Virus record (IMG/VR): IMGVR_UViG_3300032235_000808
Span: 16,717 to 80,716 of that record
Length of the DNA stretch: 64,000 nucleotides
Reading direction: 5' to 3' (one strand)
DNA from: a virus
Taxonomy: Duplodnaviria > Caudoviricetes
Made by a program: the position numbers and the translations under genes. Every line of letters begins with the position of its first letter. Position 1 is the first letter of the stretch. Below, piece after piece: positions 12,909-55,401 of the stretch. The notes under the pieces were generated by a model. It saw only the letters and a list, made by a program, of their open reading frames with translations, ran no database searches and was not told where the DNA came from.

Positions 12909-12910
12909 TT

Positions 12911-25087: not shown

Positions 25088-25252
25088 ATGGCATGTAAAA
25101 CTTGTAAACAAAAAAACGGGATACCAGATAATATCAAGGAAGATATTATGAATAATGTTGCTAAAACCGGTAAAATAGTTCTTTGGATTATTGGCATTTG
25201 GGGTGCACTTGGATTATTTGGTTTAATATCGTTATTTAGACTATTTCTATGA
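25088..25252 (+). CDS. Small CxxC membrane protein (not in ORF track)
   Basis: MACKTCKQKNG...KIVLWIIGIWGALGLFGLISLFRLFL; ATGA overlap with next gene. Confidence 0.65.
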   Translation: MACKTCKQKNGIPDNIKEDIMNNVAKTGKIVLWIIGIWGALGLFGLISLFRLFL

Positions 25253-25887
25253 AGAATGGAAAATATTTTATAGTTCTTTTCTGTAACAAGAAGAAAGTTA
25301 AAATATTATATAAGTGTATGAAACGTACCACTGTGTATGAGTATTGGCGTGAATTTAGAACAGAAAAGAAACCAAGATACGTAAAACAACAAGGTGGTAA
25401 ACGTAATCGTGAACTAATATATGAGTTAGGTCTCATATTTCCAAACAATAGGTGGGCAACTCAAATATGGGTTAAAGACAGTTTAGGTCGTAATGAGCCG
25501 GCAATCATTGAGGACGACAAGTTTCGCATTAAAGAAATTGTACCATATTGGGAAGAAGAACTCATCTACGATTATTCAATCAAAAAAAGAATCCGTTACC
25601 ATGAAATGATGGAATATATTGAAAGTGTTACCGAGATTGCTCAAATCTTTACACTTAATAATAAGTTATTTGTTCAAGTAGAGGAAGATGTTCGATTATT
25701 TGGTAATAAGAACATCAAAGATGCCGATAGATTACTTGAATTGGTCAAAGAAGACTTATTAAAAAAGAAACGTGGTAACTTTATCTTTGTTAGAGATGTT
25801 ACCACGCATCAAAGGACTTTATTATACAATTTACTTGAATCTAAGGGGTTCAAACGTCAAGAGTTGTTTAGACACTACTCTTATTAA
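25249..25887 (+). CDS. Hypothetical protein (only plus-strand operon)
   Basis: 212 aa ORF with no competing long minus-strand ORF. Confidence 0.75.
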   Translation: MKNGKYFIVLFCNKKKVKILYKCMKRTTVYEYWREFRTEKKPRYVKQQGGKRNRELIYELGLIFPNNRWATQIWVKDSLGRNEPAIIEDDKFRIKEIVPYWEEELIYDYSIKKRIRYHEMMEYIESVTEIAQIFTLNNKLFVQVEEDVRLFGNKNIKDADRLLELVKEDLLKKKRGNFIFVRDVTTHQRTLLYNLLESKGFKRQELFRHYSY

Positions 25888-26101
25888 AAACAATGTCCAC
25901 AAATCCAATTGTTATAGAAAAAGAATCGTCCGGTTTATCCATTTTCCTACCATATTTTTTCTGAATGTGTTCAAATGAATAATTAAATTCATCGTTTGAT
26001 AGTTCCAACACTACGGTATTTGATACTGTTTGTACCGACATCTTTTCGATTAAATCCGATATGATTGCTAATTGATTTAATAAATCACCCTTTCTTTCCA
26101 T
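25868..26101 (-). CDS. Hypothetical protein
   Basis: MERKGDLLNQLAIISDLIEK...; converges on and overlaps the plus-strand gene. Confidence 0.65.
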   Translation of the reverse strand: MERKGDLLNQLAIISDLIEKMSVQTVSNTVVLELSNDEFNYSFEHIQKKYGRKMDKPDDSFSITIGFVDIVFNKSSV

Positions 26102-26291
26102 ATCCAAATATCTGTGCTATTTTTTTAATAAATGTTAATTTTTCTTTAGGTGTTGGTTTTGGGATTATTTCATCCCTTTTAATTTTTTTTATTTCGTCAA
26201 TCATCTTCATCTTGTGACTCAGTATCTCCTTCTCGTCCTTCTTCATCTCCTTCGTCAACCAATCCATACCCTGTTGTAATTTCTTGTCCAT
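26085..26291 (-). CDS. Small basic hypothetical protein
   Basis: 68 aa, overlaps both neighbours. Confidence 0.55.
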   Translation of the reverse strand: MDKKLQQGMDWLTKEMKKDEKEILSHKMKMIDEIKKIKRDEIIPKPTPKEKLTFIKKIAQIFGYGKKG

Positions 26292-35065: not shown

Positions 35066-35093
35066 TATATCTATTTTATATATAAATATAATG

Positions 35094-35115
35094 AAGGGGA
35101 CTTTTGTCCCCTTTT
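35094..35115. terminator. Hairpin/terminator after clpP
   Basis: AAGGGGAC-TTTT-GTCCCCTTTT. Confidence 0.6.
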
Positions 35116-35116
35116 A

Positions 35117-35830: not shown

Positions 35831-38182
35831 CTACGAAATTTTTGTTGTGATAAAATCAATTGATGAAACATTCTCATCTTTCTTAATCATAATAAGATTA
35901 TCTGACCAGTTACGAATCAATGGATTATGAGAAATAACGATAATATGTTCAAAGTAGTTTTTAATCTTCTTAAAAAATTCACCAACCATTTCAAGGTTTT
36001 CATCCGCAATTTTGCCAAAGACTTCATCCATTACAACGATATTAGGCTTTGGTAATGATGAGATTTTGGTCAACACACTACGAAGTGCTAATGACGAAAT
36101 TGTTCTTTCATAACCTGAACCGGCATTAAGAGGTTTTGCAATTCGTGATTCATTGTCAATCATAATAAACTCAACCTCATTCTTATCGTTGATATTCATC
36201 TCCAAAATGAAATGACAACTATCAACCAATAAACGATATAGTTCTTGGTTAATTAACGGAACCATATTTTTAAGTATAACTTTTGAAATACCATTCTTAC
36301 CATAAACTGTAAGGTATACTTTAAACACTTGCATTAATTCTTCCTCCGATTTAATTTTCTTGATTAAATCTTCGTTCACACCAATCTTTTCTTTCATATT
36401 GGTGATGTTGTTCTTATGTTTCTCAGTATTTGTACCGTTTAAACGAATGTCAGCGTTTGCCGTTTCAATTTTGGTTCTAATACCAACAACCTCTGCATCG
36501 ATTTTACGATTATCCTCAAGTTTCTTCTTGTTGTTCTCGTAATTGTCTAACTTTAATTGTTTTGCATCAATTTCAACTTGTTTTTGTTCAACCTCCAATT
36601 CATAACGAGCTTGGATTAACTTATTTCTTTCATAAGCATCGAACTCATCTTTCAAACTTTTAAATGACTTATTCTTTTCTTCTAAATCATCTTGTTTGAT
36701 TTTACGTTCTACACGTTTGTTTTTTAATGATTCAATAAGTTCTTTAATCTTATTAATCTCATCAGTATGGTCAACATCTTCAAGTGCTCTATTACATGTT
36801 GGACATATAGAACCTTCCTCAAATTGTTTGATGAGTTTTTCGTTTCTTGCAATTGCATCAACATCTAATTTATCCTCAACCAATAACGAGTTAATTTCTT
36901 TTTTAATTAACTCATGTTCTTCTTCTAAATAATATTGAGATGGTTCTACAACGTTTACATTATTGGCGTTGGTTCTACTCGATGATTGTTTAGTTTTTAA
37001 ATCCTTAATATCATTCTCAAGTTGATTTGGATTGGTATTAATTAGTTCGGTATCAATATTATTGTTTCTTGACCCGAGTAATTCATCTCTCCTATCCTCT
37101 AAACCTTTTAATGCTTTAGTATGTACATCTAGTTCATCAGCTAAAATAATTAGCTGTTCTTCTGAATTAGCTATACTATCACTATAAGTTTGATTGTCGA
37201 TTTCTAACTGAGCAATGTTGTGAGTATTTGAAATTAATTTCTTACTCCAATCATTATAGATACCTTTAGCAACCTCTTCTTTTAATTTAAGAGACTCTAA
37301 TCCCATGAACTTAGTCAATATCTGTCCACGAGCGGTTGGCTTCGACTCAATCAATTCCTCGAGGTTATAACCGGTAGTTAAGATAGTTGACAAGAAGTCT
37401 TCCTCAGTACCAATAGCCGATTCAATAAACGCTTCGGTTTCTCTACGTTGTTCACCGGCCAAATTCTCTATTGTACCGTCTTCCTTACGTTTGTAAAACT
37501 CTAACTTATTGGTAACCGTATAATCACCTGACTTTGATTTCTTTCTTAATGTTTTTCTTTCAATAACATAATCACCACCATCGATTGTAATTTCACCGGT
37601 TACACTAACCTCATCCTTATCTGTGAATCGATTAAAGATTTCTGCATTGGTTTTGGTCTTAGTCGTTGAGTTAAAGAATAAGAACATTAATAGGTCTACG
37701 GTTGAAGTAGATTTCCCACCAAAGTTTTTAGGTGTGGACTCAACAACTGATATTCCATCCAAATTAGTAAAGTCAATAACATTATTATCCCCGAAAGATA
37801 AAAAATTAGAAAACTCGACTTTTTTGATGAACCATTTGTTGTACCGTACTTTATTTTCATTTTGTTTTTCAATTTCTCCATTAACTCTATTATCTAATCT
37901 ATCAATAAGTTCCCATTTAGTAGACATCTTGTTTTCATCCATGAATTCCTTCATCAATGTTTTTTGATATTGACTATCTAAAATGTTATCTGAAACTTCT
38001 AATGATTGTAATCGAGTATTTTGTACATTAGTTAAAGTCTTGGTAATGATTTGTACACTGGCTCCATTATACTTGTTCTGAAAGTATGTCTTTACTCTCT
38101 TGATTTTTTCTGGCGTGAAGTTCTCTTGCACGTCTTGCCATGTTACTTTTACGAATGGATTCGATGTTTTTGTGATACTCAT
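35831..38182 (-). CDS. sbcC: SbcC/Rad50-like ATPase (gp46-like) with N-terminal extension
   Basis: FSNFLSFG, Walker A NFGGKST, Zn hook CPTC, signature GSGYE, Walker B VVMDE, ISH; first ATG at 38182. Confidence 0.92.
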   Translation of the reverse strand: MSITKTSNPFVKVTWQDVQENFTPEKIKRVKTYFQNKYNGASVQIITKTLTNVQNTRLQSLEVSDNILDSQYQKTLMKEFMDENKMSTKWELIDRLDNRVNGEIEKQNENKVRYNKWFIKKVEFSNFLSFGDNNVIDFTNLDGISVVESTPKNFGGKSTSTVDLLMFLFFNSTTKTKTNAEIFNRFTDKDEVSVTGEITIDGGDYVIERKTLRKKSKSGDYTVTNKLEFYKRKEDGTIENLAGEQRRETEAFIESAIGTEEDFLSTILTTGYNLEELIESKPTARGQILTKFMGLESLKLKEEVAKGIYNDWSKKLISNTHNIAQLEIDNQTYSDSIANSEEQLIILADELDVHTKALKGLEDRRDELLGSRNNNIDTELINTNPNQLENDIKDLKTKQSSSRTNANNVNVVEPSQYYLEEEHELIKKEINSLLVEDKLDVDAIARNEKLIKQFEEGSICPTCNRALEDVDHTDEINKIKELIESLKNKRVERKIKQDDLEEKNKSFKSLKDEFDAYERNKLIQARYELEVEQKQVEIDAKQLKLDNYENNKKKLEDNRKIDAEVVGIRTKIETANADIRLNGTNTEKHKNNITNMKEKIGVNEDLIKKIKSEEELMQVFKVYLTVYGKNGISKVILKNMVPLINQELYRLLVDSCHFILEMNINDKNEVEFIMIDNESRIAKPLNAGSGYERTISSLALRSVLTKISSLPKPNIVVMDEVFGKIADENLEMVGEFFKKIKNYFEHIIVISHNPLIRNWSDNLIMIKKDENVSSIDFITTKIS

Positions 38183-38813
38183 TGTATTCTTTTGTATATT
38201 TTTCAATTAGTTTTTCATATTTTTCGGTACCTATATTATAAGAATAGTCAGGAAGATATATACCTTTTTCATTTTTGTTAAACAAATCAACATCACCTAT
38301 TTTAAAACATAACCAATGTTCGGGTCTACCTGCGGTTACAGTATTTGTTTTCCATAGACCTCTTACTAATTTATTTAAATCTCGTACTACACTAAAATTA
38401 ATATGCCAAAATTGTGTAAAATTACTATTAAACCTTGAAAATGTGTTAAATTCATAATCAGGTTCATAATGAATATATGGATTTCCATTTTTATCAAAAC
38501 ATGGAAATGATGGATAAGCGTATTTTTCTTTCCTTTCTTGTGGAATGTTATAAGTTGGAAATGGTAACGTAAATTGATTAAAATTTATACATGGTTGTTC
38601 CAAATAATGTCCAACCCATTTACCCGCTTCATTTTCATTCCCACCTCTTCTATCGGTATGAATAGTATCTATTCCCTTATGATTTGGATTTCGTATTAAA
38701 TTATATCCGTGTGTCTGTTTTAAGGCAACTTTTGACTCGATAGTTACCGGTCTATCATAAAATGACACCGCTTCGTCGGTACCTCTATAATTTCCTGTTA
38801 AATTTACTGCCAT
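38067..38813 (-). CDS. Putative PD-(D/E)XK-like endonuclease overlapping sbcC
   Basis: ATG at 38813 just after upstream stop; NPNHKGID...GNENEAGKW resembles a D...ExE nuclease core (weak). Confidence 0.45.
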   Translation of the reverse strand: MAVNLTGNYRGTDEAVSFYDRPVTIESKVALKQTHGYNLIRNPNHKGIDTIHTDRRGGNENEAGKWVGHYLEQPCINFNQFTLPFPTYNIPQERKEKYAYPSFPCFDKNGNPYIHYEPDYEFNTFSRFNSNFTQFWHINFSVVRDLNKLVRGLWKTNTVTAGRPEHWLCFKIGDVDLFNKNEKGIYLPDYSYNIGTEKYEKLIEKYTKEYNEYHKNIESIRKSNMARRARELHARKNQESKDILSEQV

Positions 38814-38814
38814 T

Positions 38815-39126
38815 TTATTTGATTCTACTCTCTTCGAAAAATTCAACGATAGCGTTAACCATCCAAACTGCTCCGGCGGTAAACATCCCATCAAAAAATA
38901 TAGTAGGCATCATAGGTAACTCAATATAAGTATTTACTAATCCACCTAAAATCAATGACATAAAGAAACCAACCCAAGTTCCTGTACATAATGTACATGA
39001 TATTAAGTCACCAAAAAACTTTGAGTGTTTCTTTATAAAATTACGAGCCTTTTCAAAAATAGACCCCCAAACAAGGATGGAGGTCATTCCATAACCTGCC
39101 AAAATCCAAAAAATAATTAATTCCAT
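38815..39126 (-). CDS. DUF1360-like CxxC membrane protein
   Basis: TM helices with GDLISCTLCTGTWVG. Confidence 0.7.
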   Translation of the reverse strand: MELIIFWILAGYGMTSILVWGSIFEKARNFIKKHSKFFGDLISCTLCTGTWVGFFMSLILGGLVNTYIELPMMPTIFFDGMFTAGAVWMVNAIVEFFEESRIK

Positions 39127-39162
39127 ATTGAAATATAGATAAAAAAAATGAATTAAAAAAAT

Positions 39163-39915
39163 CTATTCGTCATAAAGTGAATTTAAATTACTATTTTTCA
39201 TATACTTGGCTCTATTAATTTTACCAAGACTTTCTGTAATAGCATCCAATTCTTTTTGTAATTGTTCATTTAGTCCTTTTAAACGAATAATCTCAGTTTC
39301 GTCTATTTTAACGATTTCCTTTATAACTTCAACTGGTACTTCTTTGATTACCTCCCTGATAATTTCAACGGGAACTTCTTTGATAATCTCCTTAATAACT
39401 TCAATCGGAACCTCTTTAATCACCTCAACCGGTACTTCTTTGATAATCTCAACAGGTACCTCTTTTACAATTGTTTTAGTTTTTGATTTACCCTGAATTT
39501 CTTTTATTACCTCAACCTCGATAGGAACTTCTTTAATGATTTCCTTAACGACTTCTATTTCAATAGGAACTTCTTTTATTATTTCCTTAATTACTTCGAT
39601 TTCAATGGGGACTTCTTTGATGACTTCCTTAATAACCTCGACCTGTACTTCTCTAATAACTTCCCTAATAACCTCAACTGGTACTTCCACAAGCTTCTCA
39701 ACTGTGACTTCAACGATTTTTTCGACTTCTTTGATGATTTCTTTTTCAATTGTTACCTCCTTTCCTTTAATGTGTGATGGAGTCTCACCATATTTTAATA
39801 AAGTGAAACCTCGGTTAAATGTTTCTTTAGCTTTCTTATCTACGTCTTGAATGTTATTTAATTCACAATATTGTATGAATTCTTTATCCAAGGTTAAGGT
39901 GTACTTCTTTACCAT
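39163..39915 (-). CDS. Protein with EVIKEVP(I/V) repeats
   Basis: About 150 aa of KEVPVEVIKE-type repeats followed by a coiled coil. Confidence 0.75.
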   Translation of the reverse strand: MVKKYTLTLDKEFIQYCELNNIQDVDKKAKETFNRGFTLLKYGETPSHIKGKEVTIEKEIIKEVEKIVEVTVEKLVEVPVEVIREVIREVQVEVIKEVIKEVPIEIEVIKEIIKEVPIEIEVVKEIIKEVPIEVEVIKEIQGKSKTKTIVKEVPVEIIKEVPVEVIKEVPIEVIKEIIKEVPVEIIREVIKEVPVEVIKEIVKIDETEIIRLKGLNEQLQKELDAITESLGKINRAKYMKNSNLNSLYDE

Positions 39916-40702
39916 CCTCTATATCGGTTATATCTTTTATTTCAAAATGGAGAAATGGTTGTTCATTTGGTAAATCGTGAAATGTATATCCATCAATCTC
40001 TACATTATATATACCATAACCATGATGTTTCACCGTCTCACCAAAATTTTGTTGAATAAGACTTCCCGGCATTACCGCCTTTCCACCTTCAGGTAATGTA
40101 AATGTTTGTCTCTTATGAATGTCACCACATAATAATAAATCCAAACCAACAAAGTTTAATCTATCATAAGCATCTTCAAACTCAAATCCCATATCCGTAG
40201 ATAATCCTTGAATTGGTCCGTGGAATAAACCTACATGAAATTTACCTTCTTCCTTCTCGTACTCAGGTTTTACATTATGTTGATACAATGAATAAACAAC
40301 CCAATTGATATTCTCGTCAGGATATACACCACTATCTTTATAATATGTGATTGGTTCATCATATAATAGTTCAACAATTGGTGTGATGCTATCTAAACGT
40401 TGTGTATTGTTCTCTAAGAAGTCGTGGTTACCCGGTATGATAACAACCCTACCAAACTCACCTAATTGTTTTAGGAACCAACTTGTTAACATCAATTGTT
40501 CATTGGAGATATTAATTTTTTGATGTGCAATATCACCGGCAACAACAATACGAATGTTTCCCCAACCAAGACCTTCATCCACCCAACCTTTATATTGGAC
40601 TTTTAGTTCTTCAATTAATCTTTCAAATTGTTTTTTATACAATTCATGATATTGAAATGTTCTAATATGAATATCGGCAATGTGTACTATTCTTTTTATC
40701 AT
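39884..40702 (-). CDS. sbcD: SbcD/Mre11-like metallophosphoesterase nuclease (gp47-like), short
   Basis: HIADIH, AGDIAH, PGNHD, FHG, GDIHK, PGSLIQQNFGE. Confidence 0.9.
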   Translation of the reverse strand: MIKRIVHIADIHIRTFQYHELYKKQFERLIEELKVQYKGWVDEGLGWGNIRIVVAGDIAHQKINISNEQLMLTSWFLKQLGEFGRVVIIPGNHDFLENNTQRLDSITPIVELLYDEPITYYKDSGVYPDENINWVVYSLYQHNVKPEYEKEEGKFHVGLFHGPIQGLSTDMGFEFEDAYDRLNFVGLDLLLCGDIHKRQTFTLPEGGKAVMPGSLIQQNFGETVKHHGYGIYNVEIDGYTFHDLPNEQPFLHFEIKDITDIEDGKEVHLNLG

Positions 40703-41556
40703 CGTTTTAAATATTTTTTTAAATCCATAGTTAAGATTGTGTCACTTATTTCTTTTGGTACTCTGAATTCTTCAAATGTACCATTTTCCTTTAAAAGAAC
40801 AATAACACTACCCATTAATTTTGTTTTATCAAATTTGGTACCTTGTAACATTTTTAAAATCAATCTACCGTATAGTGGTAATTGTAAGTAATAGTGACCC
40901 AAGGCATTATCATGATAATTACCAAATGGTGGATACAATCTACCAGTGTAATATTGAACTTCAAAGTTCTTTGGTTTATTAGTTTTCCAATCTGTGATAA
41001 CTAAACCATAATCAGTTTTTTGTCTGTTCATCATCAACCATACCTTATCGGGTTGACCGGTATATCCTTCTTCAGGGTCACCTAATACCATTTCGGTATC
41101 TAATAATACTCCACCACGTTCCAACATTAAATCAAGAAACTCTTTACCTGCACCAATCATCGCATCACTCTTACGTTGTTGTTCCTCATTGATATCAAAT
41201 ATTGGTTGTCTCACATTTTTGTAGTTACCAAATCTATCAATGGTATCGGTTTCTAATTCAAAGTGAACACGACTACCCATATTAGTTGATAAATCACCAG
41301 CTTGTTTCCATTCCGCTAACAATTCTTTTGCACCTTCAGGGTCACCTTTACACATCTGTAATGCCTTACCTTCTGAATCAAAGTGTTTATGGAACTTGGA
41401 TATTAGTCTTGAAACTGACGGGAAATTACTTTTAATTTCACCGTTAAGGTCTCTCATATAATAAATGTGGTCTTCCTCAATAAAGGACAACTCTAATTGT
41501 TTCCTTTTTTCCTCCAACGCATCTCTCATCTCTAACGAGATATCATATAAATTCAT
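40699..41556 (-). CDS. PD-(D/E)XK exonuclease (Cas4/RecB-like)
   Basis: PSVS, GSRVH, TEM, GQPDKV, TDWKT, YYLQLPLY. Confidence 0.82.
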   Translation of the reverse strand: MNLYDISLEMRDALEEKRKQLELSFIEEDHIYYMRDLNGEIKSNFPSVSRLISKFHKHFDSEGKALQMCKGDPEGAKELLAEWKQAGDLSTNMGSRVHFELETDTIDRFGNYKNVRQPIFDINEEQQRKSDAMIGAGKEFLDLMLERGGVLLDTEMVLGDPEEGYTGQPDKVWLMMNRQKTDYGLVITDWKTNKPKNFEVQYYTGRLYPPFGNYHDNALGHYYLQLPLYGRLILKMLQGTKFDKTKLMGSVIVLLKENGTFEEFRVPKEISDTILTMDLKKYLKR

Positions 41557-41557
41557 A

Positions 41558-42502
41558 TTAATCTAATTTAATTTCTTTATAACCACTTAAATCACCAGCC
41601 AAATCTGCAATGTCCTTATCTCCCTCCAATTTAATGATGTTAACTCGACCCATTAACTTACCACAATTAATTCTATGATAAAGTCTTTCAGCATCGTTCC
41701 ACGCATCAGGGTCCAAGACAATAGTGAGTTCCCCCTTTGCATCATCGTATAACTTATAAAAAAGGTGGTCTGACATAAATTTACCCAACATTGGTATTGA
41801 GTTGGGGATAAATATGCTATCGAAAGCACCTTCAACGATGTATATTTTTTCATTCCATTTAACTAATTTCTCATTGAAAATAATAATCTCCTTTTGTACC
41901 TCGGGATTTTTATACTTCAATTTAGTGTATGATAGGTATGACCTTGCAATAAAATAATTTAAATAACCTTCCTCATTGTAAGATGGAATAATAATTCTAT
42001 TTGCAAAGTCTCCTTCGTAACAGAATCCAATGTTATATCTCTCTAACATTTCATCTGTAATATTTCTTTTCTTAATATAAGCCCACGCTTGTTTGAATTG
42101 TGATGTTAACCTCAATCCTCGACTTGCATCTTTAAATAAGATAAACTCCTTTGGTAATTTTACATTTTTATAGACTCGTTTTGGTGCTTCACCATCCTCA
42201 TCAGGTCTCAATATGATATACTTCTTGAGTTGTTTAGGATTACCGTGTTGTTTTATTAACTTATATAACGTACCATGAGTTCCATGGGTTTCAGAACATG
42301 ACCAGCATTTAAAAACACTCTCTTTGTAGTTTATTTCAAGATTTCCTTTACCATCTCCGTGGTCAAGTTCCTTAATATCATATGAACAAACGGGACAATC
42401 AAAAGATATTTGTCCTTTGTAATCGTTGTGGAGTTTAGGTTCCCCTAAAATGTCCTCAAGGATATCAATTACCGGTGAATAATCTACTTTTTGGTCAGTC
42501 AT
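41558..42502 (-). CDS. DNA primase (Zn finger plus TOPRIM)
   Basis: CPVC...CWSC, RIIIPSY, KYKNP, IVEGAFD, LDPDA, KDIAD. Confidence 0.88.
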   Translation of the reverse strand: MTDQKVDYSPVIDILEDILGEPKLHNDYKGQISFDCPVCSYDIKELDHGDGKGNLEINYKESVFKCWSCSETHGTHGTLYKLIKQHGNPKQLKKYIILRPDEDGEAPKRVYKNVKLPKEFILFKDASRGLRLTSQFKQAWAYIKKRNITDEMLERYNIGFCYEGDFANRIIIPSYNEEGYLNYFIARSYLSYTKLKYKNPEVQKEIIIFNEKLVKWNEKIYIVEGAFDSIFIPNSIPMLGKFMSDHLFYKLYDDAKGELTIVLDPDAWNDAERLYHRINCGKLMGRVNIIKLEGDKDIADLAGDLSGYKEIKLD

Positions 42503-42546
42503 ACTCGAAAGGTATGAAAAATATTCGGTAAAAAAAAATTAAGCAT

Positions 42547-42617
42547 AAAAAAAGAGAGTCGAACACCACCCCGACTCTCTACCAACCAAGAATGTATTAC
42601 TACATTCCCGACCTACA
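42547..42617 (-). ncRNA. Candidate small structured RNA (GNRA hairpin plus terminator hairpin)
   Basis: TATTTAT motif at 42621-27, then GAATGTA-GTAA-TACATTC, then AGAGAGTCGG..TTCGACTCTCT-T tract; no plausible protein-coding ORF. Confidence 0.55.
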
Positions 42618-42654
42618 TTAATAAATATAAACAAAATAATTTGAAAAACAAAGC

Positions 42655-43269
42655 CTACTTCGTATTTTTTTCAGTTTCTTTTATCATATTTACATATCCT
42701 ATCACACAACATGCAGCATCCGCCATGTCGTAGTTCTCTTTCTTTAAATTACCTGTCTTTCCATATAACCAACTGATATCAGGACAAACCTCATTAACGT
42801 GTTCCCAAATTACATGTTTCTTATCTATATCTTTTGGGTATCCGCCAAATAAAACATTGCGACCTTTGTCATTTGGACCAACCAAATCAGGGAAAGCGTA
42901 CTTTCTCGAATTATATGTTGAGATGAATGTTGGTAAGATTCCTAATGCGTCATAACATACTTTAAGAATTAAAGTGTTGTAACGTAACAATGTACCAATT
43001 GTGTAAATGTTATTAGATTGAAGTAATGGCTCTTCTATAATGACACGGGTAATACCCATTCCTTTATATTTTTCGATGTGTGTTTTAAACGCATCTGCCT
43101 TTTTAATTAATTCTTCGATTTTATCTTCAGGTTGTGGTTTAATTTTTGGTGAAAAGTGTGTTAACTCCAATAATTTTGACCCTGAAATATCAAATAACGC
43201 AAAACCAATTGTTTTGGTACTAATATCTAAACCAAGAATTTTAGCCGACTCAAGTATTTTTTTATTCAT
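42655..43269 (-). CDS. RuvC-like Holliday junction resolvase
   Basis: ILGLDISTKTIG, VIIEEP, DMADA. Confidence 0.8.
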   Translation of the reverse strand: MNKKILESAKILGLDISTKTIGFALFDISGSKLLELTHFSPKIKPQPEDKIEELIKKADAFKTHIEKYKGMGITRVIIEEPLLQSNNIYTIGTLLRYNTLILKVCYDALGILPTFISTYNSRKYAFPDLVGPNDKGRNVLFGGYPKDIDKKHVIWEHVNEVCPDISWLYGKTGNLKKENYDMADAACCVIGYVNMIKETEKNTK

Positions 43270-43308
43270 GTAAACTATAATAAATAATTTAACATGAATT
43301 GTAAAGTC

Positions 43309-45267
43309 TTAGAAATCTAACTGTACATCAAAACTACCTTGGTTTCGGTCATAAGGTTCAGACATCTTTCCCATAATTAATGTTTCTTTGTTTGAATTTA
43401 ACAATGCAACTTCAGTAATCATAATACTTTCGGACGTATGTGTTGGGTTTTGTGATGTGATAAATTTATCTGATGGTAAATTTATTCTAAAATTTAATTG
43501 TTCAATTTCTGTTCCTCTTACCACATTAATACTACCAGGGAATGGTTGTTCCTCACCAAAATAAGGACCTGATGTTGTGGTTAAATAATCATTCTGAATG
43601 TAATTTCCTAAATAAAAGGCACCAGTATTTAATGCTTCCGAATATTCGGTTTCATTTATTGTAAAAACATGTTCCGTTAATGCCGAAGAGGTTATTAAAC
43701 TATTTCCATTTAAATATACCGTTTGGTCGTGCATTAACCACGCATCCGAATCTGGCAATTCACCGTTATCGGTTATTTGAAATAATAAATAAAGTTTATC
43801 TGCAATTGGCCCGTTTATTGTGTTACCTGTTGATGATTGTAAATAAAAAAGGTCCTCACCACCAAATCTAACAGTAACACCGAGTGGTGTTGTGGAACCG
43901 GTTACTTTTGTATAATAATTACAAGGTATACCATTTTTATTAATATCATGTGAATAAGATAACATATATGTCATCCACATTGTTTTTCCTGTTGTTAATT
44001 CAGTAATAGGGTCATAACTTACAATTGTATTTACCTTAGGTGCCGGTAATGTGTATTTTCTATTTGATTTATAATCTAACGCAGCAACAATTTCTTCATC
44101 ATCAAATATTATTACTTGTTGGTTGTAGAACACTTTACCCACTCTAATATTTTGTTCATCAAGTAAATCTCTATATTTTAAAACAAATCTTGAGTTATAT
44201 GATGAAACTATTTCTTTATCGGTGGAGTCCATATGAAACGATGCACCAACTGTTGTTCCGGTGTTTCTATGATACATTAAGAATGGTGTGTGTACTTGAA
44301 AGTATTCTTCATCCGATAAATCATTAGCATTTGGACTCGTATATCCTGTACTTGTACTTATATGGTCATCATATTTAAAAAATCTATTAGGGTCAATGTT
44401 ATCACCATTTTTAGAGTAGTGAATTACCGCAATTACTTTTTGTTCTTCCGGTGTGATTGTAATTAATTCTCCAAAACTATTTGTAATTGTTGTGCCGGTA
44501 TTGTATGTTTGTCCATCTGATGATTTATAACCAAAAAATTCTTTGGTGCCAACAAACTTGTTACTCGTATACCCCGTAATATTTCTATCTCCACTTTCTA
44601 ATCCGGTCAATTTTTTATCCCAAACAACATTTAATGTCCATGGATTATGTTGGTCGGTTGTTTCTGTTGGAATTGGGTTTTCAAATTCTTTATCATTATT
44701 AATTAATACAACATTCGTACTTGGCATTACCGGTACATTTCTATCTAAAGTAATTGATGTTGAACCTGTAGCAGTAACTTTAAAAATATAACTATTTGTT
44801 TGTCCTGTTATTGTATCATCATCTAATTTAGATGCATTAAGTGCTAACGTAACAAAACTACCAACCGGATATTCTGAACCATCAACAACCGTTAATGTAT
44901 CGCTATCACCTATAAATGAACTAATAGTTTCATAATGTGATTTAATAACAAAATCATCACCAAATGAACCTGATACAAATCCTGCTGGTCCCATAACATT
45001 TGAACATTCCACCACTTCTCTTAATGAAACAGGAATACCATATGGTGTACCACCATCAACATATAATAAAGGATATTTTACATTACCATAATCATCAAAT
45101 GGTGCCATTACCATTTGACCGGTGGTTGAATCCGTGTATGAATATTCTGAATCTCCCACTGCGAAGTGTGTAATCACAAAATTACCATTTGCAATACTTT
45201 CTCTACCCTTTTGCGTAAGTCTTGTGGCGATTGTAAACCCTCTATAATTTGTATCTAAAAAACTCAT
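43309..45267 (-). CDS. Baseplate/tail-fibre anchor protein
   Basis: RLTQKGR...ITHFAVGD N-terminus and ITEVALLN...MGKMSEP C-terminus, like tail-collar/fibre anchor domains. Confidence 0.55.
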   Translation of the reverse strand: MSFLDTNYRGFTIATRLTQKGRESIANGNFVITHFAVGDSEYSYTDSTTGQMVMAPFDDYGNVKYPLLYVDGGTPYGIPVSLREVVECSNVMGPAGFVSGSFGDDFVIKSHYETISSFIGDSDTLTVVDGSEYPVGSFVTLALNASKLDDDTITGQTNSYIFKVTATGSTSITLDRNVPVMPSTNVVLINNDKEFENPIPTETTDQHNPWTLNVVWDKKLTGLESGDRNITGYTSNKFVGTKEFFGYKSSDGQTYNTGTTITNSFGELITITPEEQKVIAVIHYSKNGDNIDPNRFFKYDDHISTSTGYTSPNANDLSDEEYFQVHTPFLMYHRNTGTTVGASFHMDSTDKEIVSSYNSRFVLKYRDLLDEQNIRVGKVFYNQQVIIFDDEEIVAALDYKSNRKYTLPAPKVNTIVSYDPITELTTGKTMWMTYMLSYSHDINKNGIPCNYYTKVTGSTTPLGVTVRFGGEDLFYLQSSTGNTINGPIADKLYLLFQITDNGELPDSDAWLMHDQTVYLNGNSLITSSALTEHVFTINETEYSEALNTGAFYLGNYIQNDYLTTTSGPYFGEEQPFPGSINVVRGTEIEQLNFRINLPSDKFITSQNPTHTSESIMITEVALLNSNKETLIMGKMSEPYDRNQGSFDVQLDF

Positions 45268-45292
45268 ATATTATAAATATTAATTTATTTAA

Positions 45293-47695
45293 TTAGCACT
45301 CTGAATTTAAATTAGAATCTCCACCATAATTTGGTCTTAAATAACGATATTTTGACCTATTAAACATGGTATTCTTTATTAATACACCACCTGTCCATAA
45401 AGTAGTTGCCGGAACAAATTGTTCAATAACTTTAACCCAATATGGTGACATCTTTTTAATGTATTCAATTAATGATGTATATTTAAATGGTGTTATGTCA
45501 GTATTATTTATATAATCTCTATAAATCTCATCTAAAATTACATAACTTCTTTCGAATTTATTAGAGTTACTATTTACTAAAACATTTTTTAATCCATTAT
45601 CTAAAAACTCCGCGAATGTTATTCCCGTTTGTGGTGGCATTGTACCAAATGTTAATTCCAAGTTCGATGATTGTCTCCAAATATCATATTCAATTGTTTG
45701 TGATGGTGAAAGATGTACGCTTAAATTTTTTCTATTTAATGTGAAAATATCTAAATTATTGACAATACTTACTTTTTTATTGTCAATTCTCGACATTAAG
45801 CTATAACCATAATCTAAACCTTGAAACGTTCTAAAACTATCAAAATAATCCTCACCGTATGTGAATGGTTTATTCATTGTTTTAGTATATTTTGTTCTAC
45901 CAGTCAATACAGAATTATCATAATCAATAACCAATGGTGACCTATGTTGTAATGTTACATCATACCATCCTGAACCTTTTTGAAAAAATACACTACCATC
46001 ACTACTTGTGGCATTTTTTGGTACACCATTCTCATCAATTGGATAGTCACTTCTTATTAATGTTGTACCTGATGTTGGTGTCATACCCGTGTTGTAGGAT
46101 ATGAAAGTACTACCTGACATTGTTACACCGGTAATAATAGGTCCCATTTCAATCCCGTTGATATAGTTGTATAAATCGAAATTGACTTTTAAATCGGTAA
46201 TATCCCCAACTGTCACTAATGTAGTTGCCTCAGTTGGTACTGATGTTATGTCATAAACATATTCATCTATCTTAATCATTGGTTCGGGGGCACCCAAGAA
46301 TTTTAAAAAGAATTCTAAAGCTTTACGTGTACCTTTTGACTTATATAATTGTGCGAGATTAATTAAGATTCTTCTGTAAAATTCATATTCAGATTCTACT
46401 AAATTCTTTCCAACAGGAACACCTAAGTAATTACTATCTTGTCTTGTGTATAGAATATCATTTAAACTTTTCTCATCAAAAAGATTTACGGTATCGAGTC
46501 CCAAGTTTTGTGATAAATTTTTTAATAAGATATCTGGTATATTACTAATACCATCATAACTCACATGTCTCATGTAAGCAATGTTGTCAATATATTTTTT
46601 TACACTATCAAAACTTTGTCCATATAGTTGGAAAACCGATTCTGCTCTTTTGTCTTCCGTATCAAATTCAAATAATTGTGGTGATGTTAAAAATCTAACA
46701 ATTAAATTGGATTTATAATCGTCAATCTCATCTGATAAGTCATAAAGTTTTTGAACATATTGGTCAAACTCAATACCAATGATTTGTGGATTCCACCCAT
46801 CTTTTGATACCGGCCAAGTTGCGTCAACACCAATTAAATCAGTTGCACTTTCATCAAAACTATCTCTTGGTACTCTAAAAGATGCTGTGTAAATTGGATT
46901 TGATTCTCTATTAAGTAATAATTCCTCAAGGTCATCTAAACTTTTAAAGAACTCTTCAATAATACTATCATTTGGTTTGATTAAGAAATCAACATTAACA
47001 TCTGTATTTCCACTAAATAAATTACCATCCACCTCGAATGATGATATAAAGTTATTATCGAAAGTTGGCTCTGTATAATTCGTTATATTATATGAAATAC
47101 CACTATAAACAATTACATAATTCTTATATGATGAATAAAAATTTCTAATTTCATTATCCGTTTCAGCTAACGTATTACTATTTGGTTTTGTTAATACAAT
47201 ATCAAACGGGTTATATAAAATTGATTGCTGAGAGTCGAAATATGTTGTATCAGTATCACCACTATAACTAATATTTTCCGCAGTGTAATTTGTGGTTCTA
47301 ATTACTGTCGTACTATCTGCTAATAATGATGCTGGAAACTTGCTAACAATTCTACCGATTGATATATTGACTCTTTCTTTTAATGAACCGAATAAAGACC
47401 TACCAGCATCTTTTCTTGATGGTCTAAACTTAATAGTATCAGTTGTTGTTTTTGATGTATTTGTTTTTGGTGCATTAGTTTCTTCCTTTAATGTATCTAA
47501 TGTTAAAAAATCAGAAAAAGGTGATGTAGAAAAACTTTTACTATCTTTTTCAGGTGTCGCCCTATCAAGTACAAAGTTAGTATTAGTCAATTGACTACTA
47601 CCGTCAGTTATTTGATTACCAACTAAACTGTCGCTAAAAGTTTGTGCACCATTGGCTGCTTGACTTGGAACTTTATATTTTACTACTTTTGCCAT
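45293..47695 (-). CDS. Baseplate wedge-like protein (P2 gpI-type motif)
   Basis: IPDILLKNLSQNLG...LYKSKGTRKALEFFLKFLG. Confidence 0.65.
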   Translation of the reverse strand: MAKVVKYKVPSQAANGAQTFSDSLVGNQITDGSSQLTNTNFVLDRATPEKDSKSFSTSPFSDFLTLDTLKEETNAPKTNTSKTTTDTIKFRPSRKDAGRSLFGSLKERVNISIGRIVSKFPASLLADSTTVIRTTNYTAENISYSGDTDTTYFDSQQSILYNPFDIVLTKPNSNTLAETDNEIRNFYSSYKNYVIVYSGISYNITNYTEPTFDNNFISSFEVDGNLFSGNTDVNVDFLIKPNDSIIEEFFKSLDDLEELLLNRESNPIYTASFRVPRDSFDESATDLIGVDATWPVSKDGWNPQIIGIEFDQYVQKLYDLSDEIDDYKSNLIVRFLTSPQLFEFDTEDKRAESVFQLYGQSFDSVKKYIDNIAYMRHVSYDGISNIPDILLKNLSQNLGLDTVNLFDEKSLNDILYTRQDSNYLGVPVGKNLVESEYEFYRRILINLAQLYKSKGTRKALEFFLKFLGAPEPMIKIDEYVYDITSVPTEATTLVTVGDITDLKVNFDLYNYINGIEMGPIITGVTMSGSTFISYNTGMTPTSGTTLIRSDYPIDENGVPKNATSSDGSVFFQKGSGWYDVTLQHRSPLVIDYDNSVLTGRTKYTKTMNKPFTYGEDYFDSFRTFQGLDYGYSLMSRIDNKKVSIVNNLDIFTLNRKNLSVHLSPSQTIEYDIWRQSSNLELTFGTMPPQTGITFAEFLDNGLKNVLVNSNSNKFERSYVILDEIYRDYINNTDITPFKYTSLIEYIKKMSPYWVKVIEQFVPATTLWTGGVLIKNTMFNRSKYRYLRPNYGGDSNLNSEC

Positions 47696-48618
47696 TATAC
47701 GTTAGTAATGTTATCTAATCCTAATGTTTCATCAATATCCGTTCTTTCTTCACGAACCTCATATAGCGTCTCACTAAATTCGTCTTTAATTTCGTAAAGA
47801 TTGTATTGTTTGTAAATTTCATTATTCTCATCGTAGATTGTGTAGATACCCGGTGTAATCACTTTAGTTTGATTACCGTACAATGCGTGTGCCAATGTAC
47901 TTGCATCATGTTCTACCATATCAATCTCAATAGTTGTTGGATTAACAAACGTATTGGTTAATATAATCTTTTGTCCTGGTTGTCCAATAAATGGGATAAC
48001 GTTTGGTCTTGTTGATGGTGATGACGAGGGTGTTATCGTCATGAATATTAAATTTGTTACTTGGTCAGTATATTGATATCTAATGGCTTTATCCGTTGTA
48101 TTGGATAAATTAGATGTTATTGGTTGACAATAAAATGATGATGTTACAACTCTATAAAAGTTTGGTATTTTTGTGGCATTATCAGTTGTATTAATATATT
48201 CAACACGATAACCAACCATTCCTTGTGGTGTAAATTTATTTCTATCTTCCGTAGGTACATTTGATGTATCAATTATTAATCCTCTTACAGATGGAAGTGA
48301 GGCTAAAACACCGCAATCTGTAATTGTGGTTCTAATTTGCTTTGGTCTAACATGTAATGTATAAATTCCTAATTCAGAAAAATCATCTGCACTTAATTTT
48401 AAATTATATAAACCACCTAATATCTCAGCATTTGGTGCCGATGCGTCATCTGTTGTATCTGAATTGTGGTAAACAGGTGTCAAAACATCTGTTGATATTA
48501 ATTTTTTAAGTGTAACCGGAGTTGTTGACGTTCTATTAGATGTATAATGATAATATATCTCAACATCTGCTGGGGATACGTCTGCCGGTCTAACTATACC
48601 ATATGAACCTACTGCCAT
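47695..48618 (-). CDS. Putative virion structural protein
   Basis: 307 aa, TATTTAT motif upstream, coupled to wedge gene. Confidence 0.6.
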   Translation of the reverse strand: MAVGSYGIVRPADVSPADVEIYYHYTSNRTSTTPVTLKKLISTDVLTPVYHNSDTTDDASAPNAEILGGLYNLKLSADDFSELGIYTLHVRPKQIRTTITDCGVLASLPSVRGLIIDTSNVPTEDRNKFTPQGMVGYRVEYINTTDNATKIPNFYRVVTSSFYCQPITSNLSNTTDKAIRYQYTDQVTNLIFMTITPSSSPSTRPNVIPFIGQPGQKIILTNTFVNPTTIEIDMVEHDASTLAHALYGNQTKVITPGIYTIYDENNEIYKQYNLYEIKDEFSETLYEVREERTDIDETLGLDNITNV

Positions 48619-48645
48619 TTCTTTTTTATTTAATAAATATAAATC

Positions 48646-49161
48646 TTATTGTTTTTTCACTTTAAAATAAGCATTTCCATATACACTTAATTCTCCCATG
48701 TTATCAATTTCACCCAATCTTAAATTCATTTCCATCACACCCTGTTTTCCACGTTCAACAAAAATATCCGAATATATTTTTGGTTCATCAACAAATCCTA
48801 AAAAATGTTCATTACGAGATAATACCTCAAATATTATTTCTTCTTTTGTAAACCCAACAGTATTTCCTGTTAATACAGTGTAACCTTCGGGATAATCAAC
48901 ATAATAAACACCATCAATTGTGTAACCGGTTGTGTTTGTTTCACCATCAACATTAGTTGCTATTGTGTAACCATCACCACCATATTTTTTGTATTCGGAT
49001 AATTTACTCAATCCAATGGCGTTATAATAAGTAATACCGGTAAAATTTGTGTCACCGGTATATGCCGTATAATCTAAATCATTTTGATAACCTTGTGTGT
49101 ACCCCGTTTCGGGAGTTACATATGGTAATGTAAATGTTAGTGAACCTGAACCAAGTAGCAT
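48646..49161 (-). CDS. Putative virion structural protein
   Basis: 171 aa; EPKIYSDIFVERGKQGV...LGEIDNMGEL. Confidence 0.6.
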   Translation of the reverse strand: MLLGSGSLTFTLPYVTPETGYTQGYQNDLDYTAYTGDTNFTGITYYNAIGLSKLSEYKKYGGDGYTIATNVDGETNTTGYTIDGVYYVDYPEGYTVLTGNTVGFTKEEIIFEVLSRNEHFLGFVDEPKIYSDIFVERGKQGVMEMNLRLGEIDNMGELSVYGNAYFKVKKQ

Positions 49162-49240
49162 AATTATTAATGTATTCTAGTAAATATCTTTAGAATACTT
49201 TTGGATTAATATAATGAATAAATTGGTGTAAATAAATCTT

Positions 49241-49831
49241 TTAAATTGTATCGCACTCAATAAATTCAAGTTCTACCTTTTTATTGATGGTTGGTGATGT
49301 TGTGGTAATATTAAAGGTAAAATTGTATTCACCTTTACCCAATATTATCTTGTCGTTACCTGAAGTTGTTGTTGATACGGTAATACTTGATGGGATTGGG
49401 GTTGGTGCGTCATCCACCGATGTCACTGTTAATGTACTTGATACGTTAACACTATCAAGGTCACCATTTGTTACAGTTAATTTTAGTACAGGACTACCAT
49501 TTGCACCAATTAAATCCGAAACATAACTTGTATAACAAACATCGGTAGATTGAAATGTAATAAAAGAATCACCACATTTTATTTGATAAAATGTAAAACC
49601 ATTAACTAATTGTTGATGTGTTAAATCTGATTTTAAAATAGTATATTCTGGACCAATATTTAAAACGTCAACCTTACCTGAACTTGTAACACCTGTCGTG
49701 CTCAACAATGTGGCAGTATTTCCAGAGTTAAAGGTAAATCCTGAAGAATCATAATGTTCCAAAGTCGCAACAAATGGACCAATAACATTATGGGGGATAT
49801 TTTTATATTTTGCTTTTATATTAACTGCCAT
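49241..49831 (-). CDS. Putative virion structural protein
   Basis: 196 aa Thr/Ser-rich, TATTTAT motif upstream. Confidence 0.55.
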   Translation of the reverse strand: MAVNIKAKYKNIPHNVIGPFVATLEHYDSSGFTFNSGNTATLLSTTGVTSSGKVDVLNIGPEYTILKSDLTHQQLVNGFTFYQIKCGDSFITFQSTDVCYTSYVSDLIGANGSPVLKLTVTNGDLDSVNVSSTLTVTSVDDAPTPIPSSITVSTTTSGNDKIILGKGEYNFTFNITTTSPTINKKVELEFIECDTI

Positions 49832-49843
49832 ATCTTATAAATA

Positions 49844-52800
49844 TTACATTGTAAATATGTCTCCATATGTTTGACTACAACCGTTATTATCGGTAACTTT
49901 AACATAATAGTATCCAGGTGCAATACTATTAAATGTCACATTTGATGCGTCATATAATGTGTCAACCAAACTACCTCCGCCAATTTCATATGGTGCCGCA
50001 TAATCTCTATATAATTCAAAAGTTTTAGAACCCGAAGCTCCACCTGAAACAGACGCGTATATTTGGTCAAATGCAGTTTTTTGTGCAAATAATCCAAGAG
50101 CTGTTGGTTGTGTTACTGTTACGTTAAAAGTGACCTCTCTAAGAGCTGAATCTCTGACGTAGACAATATAATTACCTGCAGGTAAGTTAGAATAATTAGT
50201 TGACGATGTCCAATTTGAGTATGTTGTATAAACGCTATTTAATTTTGTTTGATAAGTTCCACCAAAACCACCGCTTATACCAGTTACCACTATCGAACCA
50301 TTTGACCCACCGTTACAAGATACGTTTGTTACTGTATTTGTTGCCACAATTGCTGCCGGTGTTCTTGTCATAGTTGGTGTTGGCGTTGGCGTTTTTGTTG
50401 ATGTACTTGTTGGTGTTTGTGATGGGGTAACATAACAATTAATTGTTACAAAATAAGTCGTTGATACGTTACCAAAAGTATCTCTTGCTTTTAAATAATA
50501 AAGTCCATCATTTAAACTACTAAATAGGTAAGGCGAACTATTGTATGAAAACCAAGACCCGCCATCATCAATTGTTAATTCATACGTTCCACCATTTCCA
50601 CCTGTTACTGAATTAACTGAAATTATACCAGATGTATTTGTTGTTCCAGCACAACTTGTTGTATATGATACGTTGATTGCTGGATATGTTGATGTATCAT
50701 TTATAGTTACAACACTTGATGTTGCAACAATACTTCCGCTAACACTACCTGTTCTAACGTACACAAAGAATGTTTCAGAACCTTCGGTTACTTGGTCCGC
50801 AGTAATTGAAACACTAAAACTACCCGTGTTACTATTAATTGTAAAGCTACCACTTGTTGAACCAAAATCAATAGACGATGATGAACCGTTAGTGTTTATT
50901 GTCCAATAAAGTGTAGTTCCATTTCCAACACGAGAAGTATTAACGTTAAATGTTAATGAAGAACCCTCATTAATATTTGAAAATGCCGGTGCCACAGAGT
51001 ATGTTGGTAACGGTGTTGATGTTGGTGTAATCGATGGTGTTTTTGTTTGTGTGGGTGTAATTGTACTAGTTGGGGTGTTACTTGGTGTTTTTGTTTGTGT
51101 TGGCGTAATTGTATTAGTTGGTGTGATAGTATTTGTAGGAGTGTTACTTGGCGTCTTTGTTTGTGTAGGTGTAATTGTTTGTGTAGGCGTAATTGTATTA
51201 GTAGGAGTGTTAGATGGTGTCTTTGTTTGTGTAGGCGTAATTGTTTGTGTAGGCGTAATTGTATTAGTAGGAGTGTTAGATGGTGTCTTTGTTTGTGTAG
51301 GCGTAATTGTATTAGTTGGCGTTACAGTATTAGTAGGAGTATTAGACGGTGTCTTTGTTTGTGTTGGTGTTATTGTATTAGTTGGCGTTACAGTATTAGT
51401 AGGAGTATTAGATGGTGTTTTTGTTTGTGTAGGTGTAATTGTTTGTGTTGGAGTCACACTTGGTGTTGGTGTATTAGTTGGTGTTATAGTATTAGTCGGT
51501 GTTATAGTGTTAGTTGGAGTTACACTTGGTGTAATTGTTTGTGTTGGAGTAATTGTTTGTGTAGGTGTTGTGGTTGGTGTAGGTGAAATACATGGTGCAG
51601 TTGCGGTAATTTGAGCATTACCACTAACATTAGTGATTGTTAATACATCACCACTACCATCCCCTTTTCTAATATAGAATGTAGAAACTCCTGTAGTACC
51701 TAAAGTTGTGTTTAATTCTGCTATAGTCCATGTGTCAGTTCCATTTGGTGATTGATATAAAACTTCATTTAATTCCAATGGTTGGTCAGCATCATAAATT
51801 AAAATTTGTGTACTTGGTGAATAACAAATAGAATAAGAATCGGTTGAGATATAATAATATACTCCGTCTAATGGATTAGATGTAGATGGTGTTACTGTAG
51901 CGGTTGGGGTAACTGTACTTGTTGGTGTAATAGTATTAGTTGGTGTGATAGTATTTGTTGGCGTGTTACTTGGTGTTTTTGTTTGTGTTGGTGTTATAGT
52001 TTTTGTTGGTGTAATTGTTTGTGTAGGCGTAATTGTATTAGTTGGGGTAATAGTATTAGTTGGTGTAATAGTATTTGTAGGTGTCTGTGTTGGTGTTGGT
52101 GTTGTAGTATTAGTAGGTGTGGTTGTATTTGTAGGTGTAACTGTTGATGTTGGAGTATTGGTTGGGTATGGTGTAGTTGCAACAGTAGATTCCGCAGTAA
52201 TAACAAACGATTCACCCTCATTAAGTGTTAAACCAGTTGCATTTGGTAAGTCGGTAGGATTATATGGATTAACTGCGCTATATTCATAAACTGTAGTTAA
52301 TGTGTTACCACTATCCGCAACTTGTACTTTTAAGTATAATTGTGAGCTATCTGTGTTTCCTGTCCATCCAATATCAAATGTTTCACCAACAAAGTCCGTA
52401 ATACTATATTTAAACGCTCCCGTTGTTGAGTTGAACTTAAATATGTCAGTTGCATTAGCAAAAATTGCCAACGTATTTGCATTTGTGTCTACTGTAACCG
52501 AACCTTGTAATGCACTACATTGAGGGAATTGCTCGTAGAACGACATATTGTTACTGAAAACAGAACCAAGATTTGTTGCTATTGTATTACCCGATATATC
52601 ATATAAATCAAGATAAATTGTTGTATGTGTTGTTAATGGATTTTCTGCGTCATAATTATCGGTATCTGGTCTAAACTCAAAATATGCGTTTTCTGGGTCA
52701 TCGGCATTAAACAAGTAAAGTACATCATCGTAGCTATTTACACAACTACCAGAGTAGTACGAACCTAAAGGTATTGGGAACTCGTTGTCAATATTAATAT

Positions 52801-55396: not shown

Positions 55397-55401
55397 CTAT
55401 A

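Follow-up and report, generated by a model that had tools for sequence, protein, structure and literature searches.

A Conserved Two-Hairpin RNA with the Anatomy of an Independent Small-RNA Gene between the ruvC-Like and Primase Genes of a Jumbo-Phage Clade

The window analyzed here is a stretch of 64,000 nucleotides (nt) from the caudoviricete record IMGVR_UViG_3300032235_000808 of the IMG/VR database (positions 16,717 to 80,716 of that record). Between a gene for a RuvC-like resolvase and a gene for a DnaG-type primase, it contains a structured element that is predicted to be transcribed from the minus strand into a small RNA. Read in minus-strand order, the interval consists of the box TATATTTAT, hairpin 1, GGU, hairpin 2, and seven T residues, the last of them at position 42547. 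The stem of hairpin 1 has 7 Watson-Crick pairs, or 13 pairs when the basal C-G pair and five G-U pairs are included, and carries a GNRA loop. The features of the locus are as follows.

42655..43269, minus strand: gene for a RuvC-like Holliday-junction resolvase of 204 amino acids (aa), the upstream neighbor (phrog_159, E value 3e-06)
42647..42652, minus strand: -35-like box TTTGTT, immediately past the ruvC stop codon, with 17 nt between it and the -10-like box
42621..42629, minus strand: -10-like box TATATTTAT, including TATTTAT (42627-42621), 7 to 9 nt before the conserved 5' end of the RNA
42547..42614, minus strand: predicted small RNA of ~68 nt, supported by the match to covariance model R1 and the fold z-score, with an inferred 5' end
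42584..42613, minus strand: hairpin 1, GGTCGGGAATGTA / GTAA / TACATTCTTGGTT, 13 pairs and a GUAA loop
42581..42588, minus strand: conserved G/U-rich stretch UUGGUUGG(U), covering the 3' base of hairpin 1 and the linker
42553..42580, minus strand: hairpin 2, AGAGAGTCGGG / GTGGTG / TTCGACTCTCT, a G+C-rich stem of 10 or 11 pairs; predicted intrinsic terminator
42564..42571, minus strand: apical loop of hairpin 2, GGUGGUGU, conserved, with the core UGGUG
42547..42552, minus strand: U run 3' of hairpin 2, from sequence reading and a terminator scan
42506..42514, minus strand: promoter-like box before the primase gene, TACCTTTCG in the window, from sequence reading
41558..42502, minus strand: gene for a DnaG-type primase of 314 aa, the downstream neighbor (phrog_47, E value 1.4e-40; PF08275)

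Every element that an earlier note, made from the letters of the window, had listed on this strand (TATTTAT, the two hairpins, and the T run) is found there. The element is also richer in G+C than its surroundings, as the same note had stated, with 44% versus 26% in the intergenic DNA of the window. Its sense strand is rich in G (22 G versus 8 C), and an A+T-rich stretch comes after it.

This arrangement is conserved among related phages. A search of IMG/VR with the primase protein retrieves 29 loci at 69 to 95% identity, and in all 29 of these contigs the primase gene is preceded by the same architecture: a TATATTTAT-type box, 7 to 10 nt, (A/G)GACGGGA, a variable hairpin, UUnGUUGGU, a variable G+C-rich hairpin with the loop GGUGGUGU, and a T run. 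A strict expression for this order matches 28 of the 29 loci, and the remaining one (L004) matches once a single box position is relaxed. All 16 distinct sequences retrieved with the primase contain GTTGG and GTGGTGT unchanged. Covariance model R1 has a single strong match in the window (82.8 bits, 42545-42615), with the second-best match, at 20.5 bits, located inside an open reading frame (ORF). A degenerate pattern scan of IMG/VR yields at least 119 stretches; R1 matches 75 of the 80 loci listed, at 52 to 90 bits, and the other 5 are chance pattern matches that score at most 17.4 bits. The distinct sequences that result number 47.

More distant relatives retain part of the element. A profile of 11 primases (A3) detects 536 relatives in IMG/VR contigs, of which the best 80, at 63 to 95% identity, were kept. 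Among these best 80 of 536, R1 matches 62 at 47 bits or more and 13 weakly (20 to 32 bits), with no match in 5; all 80 have, no more than 260 nt upstream of the primase gene, a hairpin followed by a T run and bearing a [U/C]GGUG loop. In the divergent relatives inspected, another hairpin replaces hairpin 1, and neither GACGGGA nor GUUGG is retained. Conservation thus reaches deepest in the UGGUG-presenting hairpin of the terminator, and the linker and the G-U-rich base of hairpin 1 are features of the main clade alone. The window's other, ordinary terminators carry different loops. A variant is seen in one relative (L273), where, ~170 nt upstream of the primase gene, hairpin 1 and GGUUGGU are kept and are followed directly by CAACCAACC, a perfect complement of the linker; an extra hairpin comes next, and then a terminator with the loop ACGGUGUAA.

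The virus record that holds the window has 80,716 bases and is 24% complete according to CheckV. One copy of the element each is found in related records of 323,865 bases (97% complete), 335,630 bases (100%), and 316,007 bases (95%). As these near-complete records of 316 to 336 kb carry the motif, the viruses in question form a jumbo-phage clade.

The fold of the element is far more stable than expected from its composition. The minus strand folds at -30.4 kcal/mol, compared to -16.8 +/- 2.7 kcal/mol in 200 shuffled sequences (z-score of -5.1), none of which is as stable; the plus strand of the element reaches only -19.3 kcal/mol. For the 16 distinct primase-found sequences (alignment A1), the RNAalifold consensus has 22 pairs, 15 of them with compensatory changes. 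In the alignment of the 47 distinct sequences, which is fitted to the model and in which the conserved motifs are forced by the pattern and the stems are constrained by neither, standard pairs occupy 98.0% of the cells, and 17 of the 22 pairs have changes on both sides. The covariation score is 0.784, versus 0.216 +/- 0.012 after shuffling, a value reached by none of 500 shuffles. When the partners are slid by 1 to 3 columns as a control, pairing falls to 40 to 53%. Both helices contribute: helix 1 has 12 pairs, 7 of them changed on both sides, with 98.4% of cells paired, and in helix 2 all 10 pairs are changed on both sides, with 97.4% of cells paired.

Wobble pairs make up 229 of the 1,027 cells (22%, G-U and U-G counts summed). 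On the opposite strand, such pairs would turn into A-C mismatches, and the strand that folds is therefore the gene-sense one, in agreement with the earlier note, which had argued that the G-U pairs fix the strand. The conservation of hairpin 1, on which that note had staked its case beforehand, is borne out as well: the hairpin is conserved with compensatory changes, and the proposed homolog search in the ruvC-primase gap gave both the constant architecture of the 29 loci and strong covariation. Constraint is unevenly distributed along the RNA. The base of hairpin 1, with three G-U pairs and a G-A (or G-G) mismatch, is nearly invariant, and the sub-clade that includes the window has a C-G pair in place of the mismatch. 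This G-U-rich base and the GUUGG that follows it are conserved in sequence, with the apical stem and loop of hairpin 1 varying with compensation. The stem of hairpin 2 varies freely in sequence, and its loop is conserved.

The upstream flank of the RNA resembles a promoter. Among 48 distinct upstream stretches, most relatives have the order ATTTTAC(A/T), 17 nt, TATATT, 7 to 9 nt, and the RNA, and the spacing of the boxes is kept while the spacer sequence between them varies. Judged by these sequence features, the RNA has a putative promoter of its own. In one divergent group, an identical box of ~21 nt stands twice, once ahead of the RNA and once ahead of the primase gene. That the primase has its own promoter-like element, another claim of the earlier note, holds for the window, where this element is TACCTTTCG, and for most relatives, where a TATATT-type box is found 6 to 10 nt before the primase ATG. 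This short distance suggests that the primase mRNA might be leaderless or nearly so.

TATTTAT occurs on the sense strand of the window in 26 copies. The 4,186 intergenic bases account for 14 of these and the 59,814 coding bases for the other 12; the opposite strand has 5 copies. The extended form (A/G)TATTTAT(A/T) is found 5 to 25 nt before many start codons, reaches a density in intergenic DNA ~17-fold that in coding DNA, and is strand specific; its minus-strand sites include 1310-1339, 15463-15579, 17791-17842, 20643-20683, and 35066-35116. It is probably the main promoter element of this phage. Late timing, as the earlier note supposed for this transcription unit, may apply: the genes preceded by TATTTAT include, among others, those for the tail fiber and the virion, but in the relatives the box of the primase gene closely resembles that of the RNA.

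At its other end, the element has the typical anatomy of a terminator. In a terminator scan of positions 36000 to 50000, hairpin 2 is listed first, with 11 pairs (the most of any candidate), 5 of them G-C, followed by TTTTTTT. A G+C-rich hairpin placed directly before a U run, here and at all 80 related loci, fits a predicted intrinsic terminator. No terminator is found between the ruvC stop codon and the promoter-like boxes of the RNA, so the element must also form the 3' end of ruvC read-through transcripts. The readings of the element as a 3' untranslated region (UTR) and as a gene in its own right are therefore not exclusive.

The gene neighborhood of the RNA is stable. The primase gene lies downstream of it in all 76 loci, and ruvC is found within 1,500 nt upstream in 74 of the 76, the other two having short flanks. 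The next gene, either primase or an inserted one, starts 26 to 51 nt from the R1 match, and the genes downstream of the RNA are tightly packed in an operon-like manner. Several relatives have additional genes at this site. A 274-aa gene similar to UDP-glucose/GDP-mannose dehydrogenases is located between ruvC and the RNA in the L051 group and in L117 (L117, 4858-5682), and a 68-aa ORF without a family occupies the same position in the L053 group (L053, 7249-7455). In L028, an unannotated gene takes the place of ruvC upstream of the RNA, and in L040 a 407-aa gene for a class III aminotransferase (12218-13441) separates the RNA from the primase gene. The dehydrogenase-like gene, the aminotransferase gene, and the 68-aa ORF are grouped here as metabolic "moron" genes. 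The RNA unit is intact in every relative with an inserted gene, and, as insertions on either side leave it whole, it is separable from both neighbors.

Database searches place the RNA outside the families described so far. A search of the whole window with Rfam gives no match at the gathering level, and relaxing the E value to 10 on positions 42000 to 43200 yields 5 matches, all of them noise and none to a riboswitch family. The Rfam check proposed in the earlier note thus leaves the RNA without a curated family. The best of the 5 matches, McaS/IsrA (RF00115), scores 22.1 bits versus a gathering threshold of 42 (E value of 0.32), and the RNA is not a member of this family. ARAGORN detects no gene for a transfer RNA (tRNA) or transfer-messenger RNA (tmRNA) in the window or in the 80.7-kb record that holds it (G000), though it finds both elsewhere in relatives, and the RNA is accordingly rejected as a tRNA or tmRNA.

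A blastn search with positions 41500 to 43400 against 50,697 GenBank phage records gives no match. By protein comparison, the nearest cultured phage is Flavobacterium phage immuto, whose primase is 34% identical; it has no R1 match, with a plain terminator only before the primase gene. An exact-pattern scan of 185,579 species genomes returns 37 stretches and no true match (the best scores 21 bits), and R1 finds no true match in a sample of 5 + 151 Bacteroidota genomes, where the best score is 30.6 bits. This last hit, on a Bacteroidota chromosome (L277, 1501-1579), is an ordinary terminator between convergent genes that has a GGUGGUG loop by chance. Among the sequences searched, the RNA thus appears restricted to phages. 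For a candidate role as an RNA anti-CRISPR that would mimic a host CRISPR repeat, these scans of cellular genomes likewise brought up no real match. The host of the jumbo-phage clade probably belongs to Bacteroidota, as the genes of the window lack Shine-Dalgarno sequences and the nearest primase relatives point the same way. An aquatic jumbo-phage lineage ("moraphage") with predicted Bacteroidota hosts has been described (PMC12619734), and the clade with the RNA may or may not be the same lineage.

We found no description of this RNA in the literature on jumbo-phage small RNAs, on structured RNAs from phage metagenomes, or on jumbo phages of freshwater Bacteroidota. Mining of IMG/VR phage intergenic regions has produced 8,495 novel structured-RNA candidates, whose median length is 65 nt and 1,241 of which include a terminator (PMC10690425). 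The present motif may be among those candidates; in the main text of that article, the words "primase" and "jumbo" do not occur.

The element combines a two-hairpin fold on the sense strand, the anatomy of a terminator, conserved promoter-like boxes, modular autonomy, a single copy per genome, and an invariant loop. Taken together, these features point to a gene for a small structured RNA of ~68 to 75 nt that is confined to a single clade of jumbo phages, whose genomes measure ~316 to 336 kb. The family is real and strongly supported, has the anatomy of an independent small-RNA gene, and matches no curated family. The explanation that we favor, with moderate confidence, is that the unit makes a discrete RNA of ~70 nt that would act in trans through its invariant single-stranded G/U-rich elements. 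Transcription would start at the RNA's own -35-like and -10-like boxes directly past the ruvC stop codon. The transcript would fold into hairpins 1 and 2, a structure that the covariation supports, and is predicted to end at the U run of hairpin 2, the terminator at which ruvC read-through transcripts would end as well. Once released, the RNA would act through three invariant parts, namely the UGGUG apical loop, the G-U-rich base of hairpin 1, and the GUUGG linker. Either a C/A-rich RNA site or a protein might be bound by these parts, and the variable stems would serve only as scaffolds that present them.

Several points weigh against such a trans-acting RNA. The 5' end and the existence of a discrete RNA species are deduced from sequence. 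No conserved target is found among the translation-start regions of three phage genomes, and pairing with the start region of the primase gene is not conserved. The element always lies within the ruvC-primase interval, which also fits a role in cis at an operon boundary. Finally, the divergent relatives keep only the terminator loop motif, so that part of the "functional surface" would be specific to the clade. The earlier description of a self-contained transcription unit therefore stands in part. The locus encodes a conserved structured RNA and not merely a terminator, and the unit has its own boxes and terminator and stays intact across insertions; its discrete transcript is a prediction, and the regulatory, decoy, or packaging roles suggested in the note are conjectures.

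A serious, though less probable, alternative is that the element works in cis at the operon boundary as the 3' end of the ruvC transcript, with hairpin 1 stabilizing the message and hairpin 2 terminating it. In this case, the loop and the G/U-rich stretch might bind a phage or host factor that tunes termination or read-through into the operon of primase, exonuclease, and SbcD genes. The element would then be a factor-dependent terminator, with a loose parallel in the nut-site/terminator arrangements of lambdoid phages. Such a role agrees with the fact that ruvC transcripts must run into the element, with no terminator intervening, and with the close spacing and operon-like packing of the genes downstream, and a conserved terminator loop would suit a loop-binding factor. 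However, if ruvC transcripts are all that counts, the conserved -35-like and -10-like boxes have no explanation; the primase gene has a promoter-like box of its own, insertion of genes on either side leaves the unit whole, and the apical loop of hairpin 1, which in nut-type hairpins is the usual protein site, is not conserved. The order of promoter-like boxes, structured RNA, terminator, and gene is also what a leader of the primase gene, acting as riboswitch or attenuator, would show. In that case the primase would be transcribed from the upstream boxes, and formation of the terminator would depend on a ligand or factor. Terminator-embedded aptamers provide a precedent for conserved nucleotides within such a hairpin. 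Such a leader is nevertheless improbable because no alternative pairing competes with the terminator. In an antiterminator test on the 47 sequences, hairpin 1 gains on average only -0.9 kcal/mol when the 5' strand of hairpin 2 is added to it, and that strand is fully unpaired in 23 of them. The two hairpins also covary independently. In addition, a second promoter-like box stands before the primase ATG, the aminotransferase gene of L040 separates the RNA from the primase gene, and the relaxed Rfam search brought up no riboswitch.

Two further readings do without a functional RNA. The location of the element in a replication and recombination module, next to a DnaG-type primase gene, would be in keeping with a replication origin or primase-loading site, formed at the DNA level by extruded single-stranded hairpins or by an R-loop of the G-rich transcript, and the G-rich sense strand and the A+T-rich stretch after the element would suit it. 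We regard this as very unlikely, because the base of hairpin 1, made up almost entirely of G-U pairs and a G-A mismatch, would be unstable as DNA, no iterons are found around the element, and the cumulative GC skew has no turn at 42.5 kb; the U run and the promoter-like boxes better fit transcription. A small protein is the other candidate. The sole ORF at the element is indeed open, a 31-aa frame with a TTG start at 42539-42634, but it can be virtually dismissed as a gene. The homologues are 69 to 79 nt long and fall into all three length classes modulo 3, no sense frame is open in all 47 distinct sequences, stops interrupt every sense frame in 4 of the 47, and the substitutions compensate each other so as to keep the base pairing. 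The absence of a plausible protein-coding ORF, which the earlier note had read from the window, is upheld by this comparison.

If the RNA acts in trans as we propose, it should have a partner. The antisense target prediction suggested earlier yielded no conserved target in the start regions (-35 to +25) of 74, 374, and 400 ORFs in three phage genomes. Among individual candidates, a 241- to 243-aa gene (MITNQDF...) has 11 contiguous pairs with the linker in G000 (4071-4796, outside the window) and 9 in G161 (249989-250720), and its ortholog in G001 starts differently and has no pairing; it was rejected. Among 208 ortholog pairs, the best joint match falls on another terminator, in its 3' half. 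A few relatives show pairing between the loop and the primase start region (for example, AACACCAC in L117), but most do not, and this candidate was rejected. The perfect complement of the loop, ACACCACC, occurs in 8 copies in the window versus 2.3 expected; its single copy on the sense strand lies inside an ORF and was not retained as a target. Two resemblances to host-type RNAs were also set aside. GACGGGA together with GUUGG resembles the 5' region of tmRNA, a likeness that is present in the tmRNA of G161 and not in that of G001. The loop would be one position off the complement of the 3' tail of Bacteroidota 16S rRNA; this match is judged weak, as the U at the mismatch never varies and divergent relatives retain only 5 nt of the match.

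Complete genomes of relatives contain tRNA and tmRNA genes: 23 tRNA genes and a tmRNA gene in G001 (110464-120304, loci L284-L285) and 4 tRNA genes and a tmRNA gene in G161 (86275-91590, locus L300). The 3' end of the tmRNA is a gene-encoded CACCA in G001, and in G161 the ARAGORN span stops at CCACC. It is conceivable, as a long shot, that the CACCA-3' ends common to many tRNAs and tmRNA are bound through base pairing by the invariant UGGUG loop and by the UGGU repeats in the linker, and that the RNA senses, shields, or sequesters uncharged ends. The UGGN bulge of T-box leaders and the GGU loop of RNase P would be the counterparts of such an RNA, which, if the idea is correct, would be a free-standing, trans-acting version of them.

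Phage-encoded small RNAs are known mainly from a few model phages of Proteobacteria. To our knowledge, almost nothing is known about those of jumbo phages or of phages that infect Bacteroidota-like hosts, in which both Shine-Dalgarno-based translation and the usual chaperones are lacking. The element described here offers a clean case, namely a single-copy RNA with strong covariation support and a clear transcription-unit anatomy. UGGUG is an exact target for mutation, and the R1 covariance model is ready for searches of metatranscriptomes. Should the partner be a component of host defense or translation, the RNA would show very large phages using RNA for host takeover; should the element be only a regulated terminator, it would mark the switch point of the replication operon.

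Other parts of the window have unusual features of their own. Two very large ORFs of 1,850 and 1,455 aa, without Pfam matches, occupy positions 49844-59769, within the window's only stretch with a strongly positive GC skew on the plus strand. A 1,039-aa tail-fiber protein with many matches to collagen-like repeats is encoded at 3271-6390 and accounts for the rise of G+C content to 48% at 4001-6000. The only long gap in the chain of minus-strand genes, at 25112-26196, contains the single sizeable plus-strand ORF (25249-25887, 212 aa).

In comparison with known systems, hairpin 2 has the 10 to 11 G+C-rich pairs followed by 6 to 9 U residues that are typical of intrinsic (Rho-independent) terminators. 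Unlike these, it has a loop of 6 to 8 nt in which UGGUG is conserved across the clade, and another conserved hairpin, G-U rich at its base, comes before it. McaS/IsrA (RF00115) likewise consists of two hairpins, the second of which is a terminator with a G-rich loop, but only the terminator aligns with the phage RNA. Since ruvC read-through would end at the same terminator, the layout resembles that of bacterial small RNAs derived from 3' UTRs with an internal promoter, of the DapZ and MicL type. As in these, the predicted RNA gene directly follows a stop codon, has promoter-like boxes of its own, and shares the intrinsic terminator of the mRNA. The phage RNA differs from the DapZ and MicL type in that its conserved single-stranded part is located in the terminator loop and not at the 5' end.
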